Source of the DNA: Escherichia phage vB_EcoM_NBG2
Length of the DNA stretch: 64,000 nucleotides
Sequence record: NC_054925.1
Reading direction: 5' to 3' (one strand)
A program made the position numbers and the translations under genes. A model generated the notes under the pieces. That model was not told the DNA's origin and made no database searches. It worked only from the letters and a program-made list of their open reading frames with translations. This document shows positions 26,619 through 35,215 of the stretch, in pieces (position 1 is the first letter of the stretch; every line of letters starts with the position of its first letter).

Positions 26619-26895
26619 ATTCTTTAAATCTAATCAATTTATTCATAGACTTTGAAACTTCTGCACGAACCTCATGTAGATTTTTGAGCTGTTCAAGACG
26701 CTGCGTATAGTAAGCAATTTCATCTTCTTCGAGACAGTCCTGTGAATCTTCTTTAAGATACCGTGCATAGTCCTGGAAAGCGTTACGGACTACTTCCTGG
26801 AAGTCATCAAGACTTTGAATTTTCTTAGGAGCAGCAGACACACGACGAGGGGCAGTATAATACTCATAACCAAACCCTGCGCTTAATTGAGCCAT
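26617..26895 (-). CDS. hypothetical protein (92 aa, start revised)
   Basis: Start [13 protein letters not shown] coupled to upstream stop (TAATG). Confidence 0.45.
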
Positions 26896-27161
26896 TAGTA
26901 TTTTTCCTCTGGTTGGAACACAGCACGACAAGCCCACATACTGGCTTCTTTGAGTTTCGTTTTAGCAATAGCTAACTGATCGAGGCTTTCAGCATAATTC
27001 TTCGCGAGTTCAAAGTCTTCGCAATTATCTAGTGCTTCCCAGAATTCATCATATAAAGCATCAAAGATAAGTCCTAAACGAACTTCAGCGTCTTTAATAG
27101 CATTTACTTTACCGATTTTTTCGTCGGTATGTGGCTTATAACCTTTAATATCTTCAATCAT
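26895..27161 (-). CDS. hypothetical protein (88 aa, start revised); by gene order this slot corresponds to T4 vs.4 (Acb2 anti-CBASS sponge), unverified
   Basis: Start MIEDIKGYK with GAGGAAG SD; positional inference only. Confidence 0.4.
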
Positions 27162-27375
27162 ATTTGACTTCCTCACCAGTACATAAATCGTATTCAACTA
27201 AACGAATAGGTTCATGAATGCCATATCCTTGAACAGAAATTTCTGTCGTAGGATAAATTCCATTAATATCACCCATGTTCCATGCTTCGTTAAATTGCTG
27301 TTCGCCTGAATTACTAAACCACTCGGCGAAAGCATTTAGCACATCTTCAGAACCTTCAATAATTATCTTTGCCAT
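27154..27375 (-). CDS. hypothetical acidic protein (73 aa)
   Basis: ORF track. Confidence 0.45.
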   Translation of the reverse strand: MAKIIIEGSEDVLNAFAEWFSNSGEQQFNEAWNMGDINGIYPTTEISVQGYGIHEPIRLVEYDLCTGEEVKYD

Positions 27376-27737
27376 TACAAACTCTCGGTGAAGGTACGAG
27401 CGATAACGTCGCGCTGCTGTTCCGGAGTCAGAGAGTTAAAGCGAACTGCATAACCGGATACACGGATGGTCAGCTGCGGATATTTTTCCGGATGCTTAAC
27501 TGCATCTTCCAGAGTTTCACGACGCAGAACGTTAACGTTCAGGTGTTGACCACCTTCAATTTTAACTGTAGGCTGTTGCTCAATTTCAATTTCACGGGCA
27601 TGCAAACCATAGAAAATTTCTGGGTCTACAAAAGAGTCCTCTTTAAAGGTTTTAGAGACAATAATTCGTGCTTGAATACCATCTTCAAAATAAATAGTAC
27701 CTTTATGTGTGCCTTCAAGAATTTGATATGCTTTCAT
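27375..27737 (-). CDS. grcA: autonomous glycyl-radical cofactor (GrcA/YfiD-like), chimeric
   Basis: 120 aa; C-terminal ~58 aa including [29 protein letters not shown] matches the E. coli GrcA C-terminus as recalled; 3' half of the gene is visibly GC-richer than surrounding phage DNA. Confidence 0.85.
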
Positions 27738-27743
27738 ATAACC

Positions 27744-28070
27744 TCAATTAGAAAATAAATTTATCCAAGATTGTTCTTTAATTAAAAATGGCTCAGAATC
27801 ATATGCCATTAAACTCTGTGTGATTAGTCCTTTAAAAGGCCCATCAATAAATTCCATGGTAAAATATGGAATTTTATTCATTAGCCGTGCATTAGGAGCC
27901 GTGCACAAAACTCTGCATCCTTTGAATACGCCTTTTTGTAATTTGTATTGCTTGGGATAAAATTCGCTCAAAATGTTATTTTTTGCCAAAATTTCAAAAT
28001 GATTCACCAATTTATTTTTAATAGTTTTTGGCGAAAAATAAAGATATTCGAAAAGCTGAGTGTCTGTCAT
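27744..28070 (-). CDS. hypothetical protein (108 aa, start revised)
   Basis: Start MTDTQLFEYLYF coupled to upstream stop. Confidence 0.45.
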   Translation of the reverse strand: MTDTQLFEYLYFSPKTIKNKLVNHFEILAKNNILSEFYPKQYKLQKGVFKGCRVLCTAPNARLMNKIPYFTMEFIDGPFKGLITQSLMAYDSEPFLIKEQSWINLFSN

Positions 28071-28657
28071 CATTGCATTCCGATTACGAAAAACTGTGGA
28101 CGAGTAATACCACCAATGCAACATTTAATATTACAGCAGCAGTGTACAGTGTCAATATGGACACTATAAATCTTATCCATATCAGGAGATTTGACAGGCT
28201 CATCAATTATATACAAAATTCGCGAAAGCGATAAACCTCTGAACTTACTTCCTTTATTACCGATAAAACTGCGCACAGAATCAGTAAATAAACGAAAACG
28301 TATATCATCATTAGAATAACGCGAAAATTCCTTTTTGATGTTATTTGCAGAAATTTTAGCGTAAGCTGAAGTATTAGAAAGAACAATAACTGTTCCACCG
28401 TCATACAACCAATTAGCGGCAAAATTAGTTACTGCAGTTGATTTACCAGATTGACGCCCACCATCTAGTCGAAGTGTACAATACTGCTTAAGTAAGTCTT
28501 CAAATGGTGGGATATAATCGTTTTTACAAATTTCTTCTACTCTAGCATCAGAATGGTGTGTAAAAGCATTCATCAGGGATAGATAAGGACCAGTTAAAAA
28601 TGTTCTCATTTTATTCTCTCTAAATTTGGGCCATTCCATGGCGCATGAATTGTCCAT
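28070..28657 (-). CDS. small P-loop NTPase-like protein (195 aa, start uncertain)
   Basis: Walker A-like GGRQSGKST and Walker B-like ILYIIDEP. Confidence 0.5.
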   Translation of the reverse strand: MDNSCAMEWPKFRENKMRTFLTGPYLSLMNAFTHHSDARVEEICKNDYIPPFEDLLKQYCTLRLDGGRQSGKSTAVTNFAANWLYDGGTVIVLSNTSAYAKISANNIKKEFSRYSNDDIRFRLFTDSVRSFIGNKGSKFRGLSLSRILYIIDEPVKSPDMDKIYSVHIDTVHCCCNIKCCIGGITRPQFFVIGMQ

Positions 28658-28762: not shown

Positions 28763-29236
28763 TTATTTGAACGATTTAACGTACTGAATAGAACCTTTAC
28801 TATTTACAAAGGCAATTTTACCATTTTTATTATACATTGTAGCAGTACGTTGATAGCCATAAGTTTGTTTACCAGATTGATAACCAACTAATGCAAAATT
28901 ATCTTCACCCATTTTATTCTGTTTAGCGCGAATGCGTTCATGACCATGTGCCATAAGAACCTTAGCATCACCAGTTGCAATGGATCGACGAGTTTTTTCA
29001 TCTTCAACTGTATTAACAAAGTCGTCAAATGAATCAAATTTAGCATGAGATTTATTATACAGTTTTCCATCTACTGCATAATTATATCCCTGTACATCCA
29101 TCTCAACTTCTGTACCATCATCCAATACAGCAGTAATTTTTTGACCTTTTTTAAATTTCAAAAGATCAGTAAAAGATTCAGCGATAATTTGAGAATTAAT
29201 AGCTGCTTCAGTGATAAATTCTTGATATGTTTTCAT
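28763..29236 (-). CDS. internal (capsid-injected) protein with capsid-targeting sequence
   Basis: 157 aa; begins MKTYQEFITEA, the T-even capsid-targeting sequence pattern; adjacent to e as ip genes are in T4. Confidence 0.7.
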   Translation of the reverse strand: MKTYQEFITEAAINSQIIAESFTDLLKFKKGQKITAVLDDGTEVEMDVQGYNYAVDGKLYNKSHAKFDSFDDFVNTVEDEKTRRSIATGDAKVLMAHGHERIRAKQNKMGEDNFALVGYQSGKQTYGYQRTATMYNKNGKIAFVNSKGSIQYVKSFK

Positions 29237-34387: not shown

Positions 34388-34463
34388 TGGTCGAGGCAGT
34401 AGGGATCGAACCTACGACCCAGGACTTAGAAGGTCCTTGCTCTTCCTTCTGAGCTATGCCTCG
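34388..34463 (-). tRNA. tRNA-Arg (anticodon UCU)
   Basis: Cloverleaf read by hand: acceptor CGAGGCA/TGCCTCG, anticodon loop CTTCTAA, T-loop TTCGATC, encoded CCA. Confidence 0.8.
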
Positions 34464-34467
34464 TATT

Positions 34468-34542
34468 TGGCGGACGTGATAGGATTCGAACCTATAACCA
34501 ATCGCTTAACAGGCGATCGCTCTGCCATTGAGCTACACATCC
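34468..34542 (-). tRNA. tRNA-Asn (anticodon GUU)
   Basis: Acceptor GGATGTG/CACGTCC, anticodon stem ATCGC/GCGAT with loop CTGTTAA, T-loop TTCGAAT, encoded CCA. Confidence 0.7.
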
Positions 34543-34546
34543 AAAT

Positions 34547-34633
34547 TGGTGGGGAGTGGTGGAGTCGAACCACCCGAGTCGCAATGACAATGAATTTACA
34601 GTCCACACCGCTACCCCTACGGGATAACTCCCC
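34547..34633 (-). tRNA. tRNA-Tyr (anticodon GUA), type II with long variable arm
   Basis: Acceptor GGGGAGT/ACTCCCC, anticodon loop CTGTAAA, long variable arm, T-loop TTCGACT, encoded CCA. Confidence 0.65.
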
Positions 34634-34642
34634 AAATTAATT

Positions 34643-34717
34643 TGGTGGCCCTGGGTGGAATTGAACCACCATCTGGCGATTATGAGTCGCGTGCTTGAAC
34701 CTTCCAGCTACAGGGCC
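34643..34717 (-). tRNA. tRNA-Ile/Met (anticodon CAU; probably the AUA-reading tRNA-Ile as in T4)
   Basis: Acceptor GGCCCTG/CAGGGCC, anticodon loop CTCATAA, T-loop TTCAATT, encoded CCA. Confidence 0.7.
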
Positions 34718-34718
34718 T

Positions 34719-34794
34719 TGGTGCTGATTGACGGAATCGAACCGCCGACCTTCTCATTACAAGTGAGTTGCTCTACCTACTGAGCTAAATCAGC
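34719..34794 (-). tRNA. tRNA-Thr (anticodon UGU)
   Basis: Acceptor GCTGATT/AATCAGC, anticodon loop CTTGTAA, T-loop TTCGATT, encoded CCA. Confidence 0.8.
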
Positions 34795-34799
34795 AAAAC

Positions 34800-34889
34800 T
34801 GGCGGAGGCGATAGGATTTGAACCTATGAGTCGCCGGAGCGACTGCCGGTTTTCAAGACCGGTGCATTAAACCACTCTGCCACGCCTCC
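34800..34889 (-). tRNA. tRNA-Ser (anticodon UGA), type II
   Basis: Acceptor GGAGGCG/CGCCTCC, anticodon loop CTTGAAA, long variable arm, T-loop TTCAAAT. Confidence 0.8.
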
Positions 34890-34891
34890 AG

Positions 34892-34965
34892 TCTCCATAC
34901 AAGGATTTGAACCTTGGACCTCCTGATCCCAAATCAGGCGCTCTACCAAACTGAGCTACACGGAG
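34892..34965 (-). tRNA. tRNA-Pro (anticodon UGG), CCA not encoded
   Basis: Acceptor CTCCGTG/TATGGAG, anticodon loop TTTGGGA, T-loop TTCAAAT; 3' end followed by AC rather than CCA. Confidence 0.75.
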
Positions 34966-34975
34966 TAAATTAAAT

Positions 34976-35049
<74 letters not shown>

Positions 35050-35054
35050 AAATT

Positions 35055-35141
35055 TGGTGCGAGAAGTGGGACTCGAACCCACAAGGAAATCATTCCGCAG
35101 CATTTTAAGTGCTGTGCCTTTACCAATTTGACCATTCTCGC
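35055..35141 (-). tRNA. tRNA-Leu (anticodon UAA), type II
   Basis: Acceptor GCGAGAA/TTCTCGC, anticodon loop CTTAAAA, long variable arm, T-loop TTCGAGT, encoded CCA. Confidence 0.8.
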
Positions 35142-35142
35142 G

Positions 35143-35215
35143 CTGGGAATAAAGGACTCGAACCTTTGCATCCTGGAATCAAAATCCAGTGCCTTACCAA
35201 CTTGGCTAATTCCCA
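35143..35215 (-). tRNA. tRNA-Gln (anticodon UUG)
   Basis: Acceptor TGGGAAT/ATTCCCA, anticodon loop TTTTGAT, T-loop TTCGAGT; 1-nt spacer to tRNA-Leu (dimeric precursor arrangement). Confidence 0.8.

Follow-up and report, generated by a model that had tools for sequence, protein, structure and literature searches.

The 64-kb stretch of phage DNA analysed here, which we refer to as the window, comes from a T4-type phage of the genus Tequatrovirus and carries vs.6 (Y06I in T4), the phage autonomous glycyl-radical cofactor gene, at 27375..27737 on the minus strand. The open reading frame runs from ATG to TAA and encodes 120 residues. Its assignment draws on the ORF list, on Pfam, PDB and NCBIfam matches and on synteny, the gene order vs.8-vs.7-vs.6-vs.5-vs.4-vs.3-regB-vs.1 being that of phage e11/2 and T4; in annotated relatives the lysozyme gene e lies a few genes away. 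At the DNA level vs.6 is 100% identical to the copies of Escherichia phages Pinarejo and REP3 and differs from the T4 copy, which is named GrcA in RefSeq, at 6 nt (357 of 363 nt and 118 of 120 amino acids identical), the residue changes being Q54P and R73H (Q54 and R73 in the window phage). A preliminary description of this DNA had stated that a T4 homologue is known and that the function is not new. Indeed, the gene is vs.6, two residues from its T4 counterpart; gene and function belong to textbook T4 biology and do not constitute a new kind of system.

The product is a stand-alone small protein of the ~14 kDa class, with its own start and stop and with unrelated phage genes on either side. 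The Pfam domain Gly_radical (PF01228) spans residues 60-101 (E 2.5e-18), and the RVxG[YF] signature of the glycyl radical domain homologous to PflB ~697-759 is present as RVSGYAV at residues 92-98, which places the radical glycine at G95. The solution structure of E. coli GrcA (PDB 6OWR) aligns with residues 22-120 (E 9e-42), and residues 697-759 of PflB (1H16) are also matched (E 5e-26). The NCBIfam model TIGR04365 'spare_glycyl' scores 154.9 bits over residues 20-120 (E 1e-45), short of its equivalog cut-off of 170 bits, compared with 234 for E. coli GrcA; the cut-off is narrowly missed because the N-terminus of vs.6 has diverged.

T4 Y06I and E. coli YfiD are named as the two biochemically validated spare parts for pyruvate formate-lyase (PFL), and Y06I is stated to have been shown to be activated and to rescue oxygen-cleaved PFL, in a passage of PMC8683613 that cites Wagner et al. 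2001. From this orthologue we infer that vs.6 is likewise a spare part for oxygen-damaged host PFL. Host PflA would convert G95 to a radical, and vs.6 would then dock on oxygen-cut PflB that is without its own radical domain, reviving the enzyme and sustaining the fermentative energy metabolism of the infected cell at low oxygen. Nolan et al. 2006 (PMC1524935) connected vs.6 with nothing beyond the Gly_radical domain and proposed that it acts in nucleotide metabolism.

Immediately downstream lies vs.5 (27154..27375, minus strand; 73 residues, phrog_1986, no assigned function), which provides the context for the 3' junction discussed below. Its start overlaps the vs.6 stop (TAATG), so that the 3' tail of vs.6 is also the DNA just upstream of the vs.5 start. 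Pairwise alignment of the vs.5 region with the DNA downstream of E. coli grcA showed no similarity past the stop codon, and vs.5 is not host-derived. Promoters and terminators were sought around vs.6, and none scored above shuffled expectation.

The surroundings hold two further points of note. Two genes downstream of vs.6, in the vs.4 position, ORF 26895-27197 (minus strand; listed with a TTG start, an internal ATG probably being the true one) contains an Acb2/Tad1 hairpin domain (Pfam, E 2.1e-20), a family of phage proteins reported to sequester cyclic-nucleotide immune signals. The minus-strand features at 28070-28657 and 28763-29236 belong to the interval from vs.8 to lysozyme e, which holds a single ORF of 157 residues, of the internal-virion-protein type as in e11/2. 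T4 has denV, ipII and ipIII there; denV (endonuclease V) appears to be absent between vs.8 and lysozyme e in the window phage.

A host-identical tract inside a phage-type gene

Pairwise alignment with E. coli chromosomal grcA revealed a run of 169 nt without a single mismatch at 27391..27559 (minus strand), comprising residues 61-115 and parts of the flanking codons. The preliminary description had equated the C-terminal ~58 residues with GrcA; the match stands, its length does not, the identical segment being 60 residues long (vs.6 61-120, GrcA 68-127). The BLASTN comparison with host genomes that it had proposed was carried out on 5,426 complete E. coli genomes: nt 179-363 of vs.6 (27375-27559) match grcA at 95-99% in 5,426 of 5,426 genomes, the best matches listed being at 97.3%, and nt 1-178 (27560-27737) have no nucleotide match in any of them. 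Annotators should expect part of vs.6 to map as host DNA. Megablast of the full 64 kb against the same 5,426 genomes returned only the vs.6 tract and one tRNA-Tyr-like plasmid match, and no further host-derived segment in the window. The tRNA-Tyr region, at ~34544-34636, has 89.5% megablast similarity to the tRNA-Tyr of some E. coli plasmids.

The tract stands out in composition as well. Its GC content is 0.492 in 27375-27559, compared with 0.337 in 27560-27737 and 0.353 in the whole 64-kb window, a deviation (z = 3.1) that ranks in the top 0.9% of 185-nt windows; GC3 rises from 0.20 in the N-terminal part to 0.44, the value of E. coli grcA itself. Thus the scan of GC and codon usage bears out what the preliminary description had said of a GC-richer segment at about 27375-27565 and of an AT-rich, phage-like N-terminal half. 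The only other GC peaks are a tRNA cluster and the glycine-rich end of a 518-residue glycine-rich ORF, which we take to be gp12-like; both were considered as transfers and rejected on account of what they encode. The cluster, at 34388-35215 (minus strand), holds ten tRNA genes (Arg, Asn, Tyr, Met, Thr, Ser, Pro, Gly, Leu and Gln); T4 has eight.

With phage codon usage drawn from 28 long ORFs of the window, the nucleotide identity to grcA expected for the same 55 residues is 77%, and the probability that 55 of 55 codons are identical is ~1e-29; 15 of these 55 codons are rare (<0.2) in the window phage. The expectation is supported by the phage homologues that lack the tract (RB49 and T5-like), which encode nearly the same domain and are 73-77% identical to any host grcA. 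In both composition and codon usage the tract resembles its donor, not the recipient. As grounds against a host origin, the preliminary description had named an identity merely at the level of protein conservation and a GC content that is no outlier. We found neither, the identity being 100% over 169 nt against ~77% expected, and it is thus correct to read the tract as a segment acquired from a host gene.

Independent evolution of host-preferred codons for high expression, with no transfer of DNA, might be considered instead, as grcA codons are typical of highly expressed host genes and the unconverted phage copies, too, are somewhat GC-richer in the radical domain than upstream. However, the identity extends to CAA, AAG, CAT, TAT, TTT and GTA, codons that are non-preferred in E. 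coli, and it thus speaks against convergent codon optimisation. Further counterevidence lies in the probability of ~1e-29 under phage codon usage, in the mere 73-77% reached by the T5-like and RB49 copies with nearly the same domain, and in the fact that phage copies follow the synonymous states particular to E. coli or to Klebsiella, a diagnostic-site test, described below, that refutes convergence. We give this explanation hardly any credence. Less credible still is an artefact. Phage sequencing commonly contains host reads, and contamination or a mis-join during assembly could place host DNA in a phage record, but hundreds of phages sequenced independently, the T4, T2 and RB69 references among them, show the same junctions, the reading frame is intact, and phage sequence lies on both sides of the tract inside one ORF.

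Among host genes, identity to the vs.6 tract is 100% for E. coli grcA, 98.8% for another Escherichia species, ~92% for Citrobacter, 88% for K. pneumoniae and 82% for Salmonella, and the donor is therefore Escherichia coli itself. Two other candidates were rejected: tdcE, at ~75% to the window gene against 100% for grcA, and pflB, at 80% to the tract of the Tequatrovirus locus L105, with grcA again at 100% to the window gene. Within the hosts, the two parts of grcA have diverged with no break between them when E. coli is compared with Klebsiella, Salmonella or Citrobacter. Identity in the N-part and in the tract is 84.3% and 87.9%, respectively, between E. coli and K. pneumoniae, and 84.8% and 82.4% between E. 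coli and Salmonella. Host genes without a break, together with a tract of host composition, indicate transfer from host to phage. The opposite direction, the copying of a phage tract into bacterial grcA, has a precedent of sorts in the two-way exchange proposed for cyanophage psbA (PMC1484495). It is exceedingly improbable here, given that the tract is found in all 5,426 E. coli genomes, that the halves of the host gene show no break, that a tract GC of 0.50-0.58 suits the hosts and not phages at 0.35, and that divergence is graded among Escherichia, Citrobacter, Salmonella and Klebsiella.

What flanks the tract decides how it was acquired. The phage-type 5' part (27560..27737, minus strand; codons 1-59 and the first base of codon 60) is AT-rich and, as noted, without an E. 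coli nucleotide match. Its nucleotide identity to grcA is 37% in ungapped register, yet the two are homologous as proteins: the N-terminal half of vs.6 is 33% identical to the GrcA N-terminus (BLASTP, E 1e-5), and the motifs ARxIVxK, ED and RE..E..P.V are common to both N-terminal regions. The same 5' part is 89-90% identical to that of Mosigvirus and ~72% to that of Jiaodavirus. At the other end, the 3' tail (27375..27390, minus strand; third base of codon 116, codons 117-120 and stop) encodes the amino acids of GrcA with five synonymous sites in a non-host state. These five mismatches, all within the last five codons (TTC ACC GAG AGT TTG against TTT ACT GAA AGC CTG), are the only ones 3' of the perfect run. 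Among phages the tail is a mosaic, with two differences from grcA in T4, two in fFiEco06, three in RB69 and five in the window phage.

The N-terminal half of vs.6 is hence a diverged GrcA homologue, and the tract is internal, with both of its ends inside the ORF. The preliminary description had called the gene chimeric, which is right as regards the host tract and wrong if taken to mean a fusion of unrelated parts; the idea of a host fragment fused to an unrelated ORF was rejected, since the N-half aligns to GrcA and the tail codons are phage-type synonymous variants. Because both tract ends fall inside a pre-existing full-length phage homologue, they carry the signature of gene conversion, by which we mean double exchange or copy-repair, and not that of illegitimate capture of a gene end. 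As its N-terminal half, too, is distantly homologous to GrcA, the gene is an old phage homologue in which an internal tract has been overwritten by the host gene. An internal near-host tract bounded by a diverged pre-existing homologue is also what psbA-type conversion would be expected to leave.

One stretch within the tract deserves separate mention. The nucleotides CCGGAACAGCAGCGCGACGTTATCGC (residues PEQQRDVIA; vs.6 nt ~313-345, window ~27393-27425) are near-invariant across many host genera and also in the unconverted phage copies, a degree of conservation that exceeds what synonymous sites should permit. The stretch may be the usual recombination seed, or it may be subject to a constraint at the RNA level.

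Klebsiella-type tracts and the number of events

The preliminary description had suggested that alignment with the T4 homologue would date the transfer. This cannot succeed, since T4 has the same host tract. Twenty positions of the 165-nt tract distinguish the grcA genes of E. coli and K. pneumoniae, and these served as diagnostic sites. The K. pneumoniae gene was taken from a chromosome mis-filed among plasmids in PLSDB. Several chromosomes of 4-5 Mb are filed there as plasmids (K. pneumoniae, E. coli, Proteus and Aeromonas; for example CP125156.1 and NZ_OL790696.1), which is a trap for plasmid statistics.

All 20 sites are of the E. coli type in the window phage, T4, fFiEco06 and the Mosigvirus phage RPN187, as are 19 of 20 in RB69. 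In Jiaodavirus, by contrast, the K. pneumoniae type prevails, at 17 of 20 sites in KP1, 16 of 20 in Kp17-11 and 15 of 20 in PKO111. The freshest Klebsiella tract is that of KPV15, represented by its IMG/VR copy L128; it reaches 98.2% identity to K. pneumoniae grcA, including a perfect run of 140 nt, and its GC content is 0.58 compared with 0.36 upstream. The matched region of that copy (L128:401-759; UViG_2974754850, same length as KPV15) is 359 nt long rather than 360, and a naive translation of its vs.6 shifts frame after about residue 42, which points to a sequencing error or else to a pseudogene with a host-identical 3' tract. The 5' junction follows the codons AAA AT(T) in both the E. coli-type and the Klebsiella-type group, coinciding with the onset of protein conservation. 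The Jiaodavirus tracts are 90-98% identical to K. pneumoniae grcA and their N-parts 95-98% alike, a range suggesting that the events differ in age, or in their Klebsiella donor, and were followed by drift.

In GenBank, identity to E. coli grcA over nt 200-384 is ≥95% in at least 504 phage records, and at least 77 are 95-99% identical to the 3' part of K. pneumoniae grcA. No tract of Salmonella or Enterobacter type reaches 95% among sequenced phages in GenBank. Karamvirus and Pseudotevenvirus show no recent tract, being at most 85% identical to any host of a panel that is without Cronobacter and many other species. In IMG/VR, an exact pattern placed on the conserved 5' end recovered 6 loci and an alignment-based scan 80. 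The IMG/VR locus L123 (UViG_3300008607_000007) is a more distant phage homologue of ~60% amino acid identity whose tract is 86.7% identical to Haemophilus parainfluenzae grcA with a perfect run of 51 nt, and a Pasteurellaceae phage could thus hold a third tract of host type, albeit a partial one.

The two parts of the gene have different histories. Between T4 and RB69, identity is 89.8% for the N-part and 98-100% for the tract; between T4 and Jiaodavirus it is ~72% for the N-part and 87-88% for the tract, the latter equalling the 87.9% between E. coli and K. pneumoniae themselves. The N-part thus tracks the divergence of the phages and the tract that of the hosts, a pattern for which parallel drift is insufficient and which requires at least two independent host-to-phage events. 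Tracts that match the phage's own host genus in different phage lineages are likewise to be expected of psbA-type conversion.

An alternative history would place a single conversion in one ancestral T-even phage, followed by spread from phage to phage with no continuing exchange with the host. The 5' junction is shared exactly by all E. coli-type phages, tract divergence within Tequatrovirus (0-1.8%) is not below that of the N-part (~1%), and T-even phages recombine readily. Such a history nevertheless leaves unexplained the Klebsiella-type tract (15-17 of 20 sites, 140-nt perfect run), for which at least two events are needed, as well as the mosaic tail, whose 3' end points differ between phages. 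Moreover, RB69 has the E. coli tract and yet, according to a passage of PMC6024577, is reported to be unable to recombine with T4 or other RB phages. Overall we regard a single conversion as a rather doubtful account.

Applied lineage by lineage, the data allow a finer distinction. For Tequatrovirus, one ancestral conversion suffices. For Mosigvirus, the reported failure of RB69 to recombine with T4 favours an independent event from the host; its E. coli-type tract could also have come by phage-phage recombination and not separately from the host. Two allelic differences were found in the tract among E. coli genomes, at grcA nt 213 (A/G) and nt 240 (T/C), and the same variants occur in the few phage sequences sampled, C240 in RB69 and L105 and G213 in L105. 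The L105 combination of C240 and G213 is in no E. coli genome, the best match being 99.4%. These shared variants are only suggestive, of several E. coli donors or of recurrent third-position transitions.

Proposed origin and relation to known systems

Taken together, we consider it very likely that vs.6 is the known T4-type GrcA homologue with the tract for its radical domain overwritten from host grcA, and that this has happened separately in Klebsiella phages. An AT-rich homologue of the phages' own is long-standing in T4-like and T5-like phages. In E. coli T4-type phages, an internal tract of ~169 nt, encoding the conserved radical domain, was copied from the chromosomal grcA of the infected cell, and T4-like phages of Klebsiella underwent a separate conversion with Klebsiella grcA as the donor.

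Host-DNA degradation and modified cytosine in T4-type phages might lead one to expect such exchange to be rare. T-even replication is primed by recombination, and T4 exchanges sequence readily with plasmid-cloned homologous DNA, on which marker rescue and the insertion/substitution method depend. Unconverted phage copies share perfect runs of 20-29 nt with host genes, and runs of this kind (~20-30 nt, in the conserved radical domain) would seed the first event: in recombination-primed replication a phage 3' end would invade a fragment of host grcA and copy it. Copying yields a tract made of phage-type nucleotides, so that the problem of unmodified cytosine would be avoided. A first conversion would create complete identity and thereby make later ones easier. 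The 5' end of the tract lies where protein conservation, and with it DNA homology, ends; that the tract often ends before the stop codon is reached may reflect selection on the region upstream of the vs.5 start, although this is speculation.

Going a step further, it is somewhat probable, in our judgement, that vs.6 evolves in concert with the grcA of the enterobacterial genus being infected, the tract being re-copied repeatedly in lytic infection and drifting towards AT in between. If so, vs.6 would be an easily scored natural reporter of recombination between a lytic phage and the host chromosome, in a phage that is strictly lytic, degrades host DNA and modifies its cytosine, and the genus of the recent host would be recorded in the tract sequence.

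T-even phages break down the chromosome of their host and substitute the cytosine of their own DNA, and they are usually regarded as nearly closed to host DNA. The best-studied of them nonetheless carries a verbatim 169-nt tract of E. coli, and in its Klebsiella-infecting relatives the same position is occupied by the Klebsiella version. The tract makes host-templated conversion during lytic infection directly testable and offers a simple sequence marker from which the recent host genus of metagenomic T4-like phages could be read. In the searchable literature we found no mention of the nucleotide identity between vs.6 and host grcA, an earlier mention being possible, and no report of host-tracking of vs.6 by repeated conversion; the tract of K. 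pneumoniae type in Klebsiella T4-like phages, 96-98% identical with a 140-nt perfect run and sharing the 5' junction, is new as far as we found. What the host-tracking pattern adds to phage evolution is modest, clean and testable.

Among known systems, T4 Vs.6/Y06I is the orthologue, located between vs.7 and vs.5 and bearing the same host-derived tract; the window gene differs from it in having Q54 for P and R73 for H and in that its host-identical tract ends three synonymous sites earlier on the 3' side. E. coli GrcA (YfiD, 6OWR) shares with vs.6 the C-terminal 60 residues, including the radical glycine, a homologous N-region and what may be called the same size (127 and 120 residues for GrcA and vs.6, respectively). 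In vs.6, however, the N-region is AT-rich and only ~33% identical, with a TIGR04365 score of 154.9 rather than 234, and the gene is phage-encoded and transcribed within a phage early-gene cluster. The Jiaodavirus copies (for example KPV15 and KP1) have the same length, the same 5' junction and a GC-rich host-type tract, but their donor is Klebsiella grcA, they have the Klebsiella-type residues L77 and E81 where the E. coli type has E77 and K81, and their 3' junction lies ~9 nt further upstream.

The closest evolutionary parallel that has been described is cyanophage psbA/psbD, host-like metabolic genes with patchy GC content and intragenic recombination between host and phage (Sullivan et al. 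2006, PMC1484495; such recombination is also attributed to Zeidner et al. 2005, as cited in PMC1484495). As with vs.6, a phage copy of a host metabolic gene replaces a damage-prone part of a host protein, and GC content is patchy within the gene, segments are exchanged between host and phage, and sequences cluster by host. As in cyanophage psbA, we read the E. coli-type and Klebsiella-type tracts of vs.6 as repeated host-to-phage gene conversion. Compared with psbA/psbD, the vs.6 tract is sharper (169 nt at 100%), its junctions are resolved to the base and its direction is unambiguous, and its carrier is a hydroxymethylcytosine-containing T-even phage of enterobacteria.
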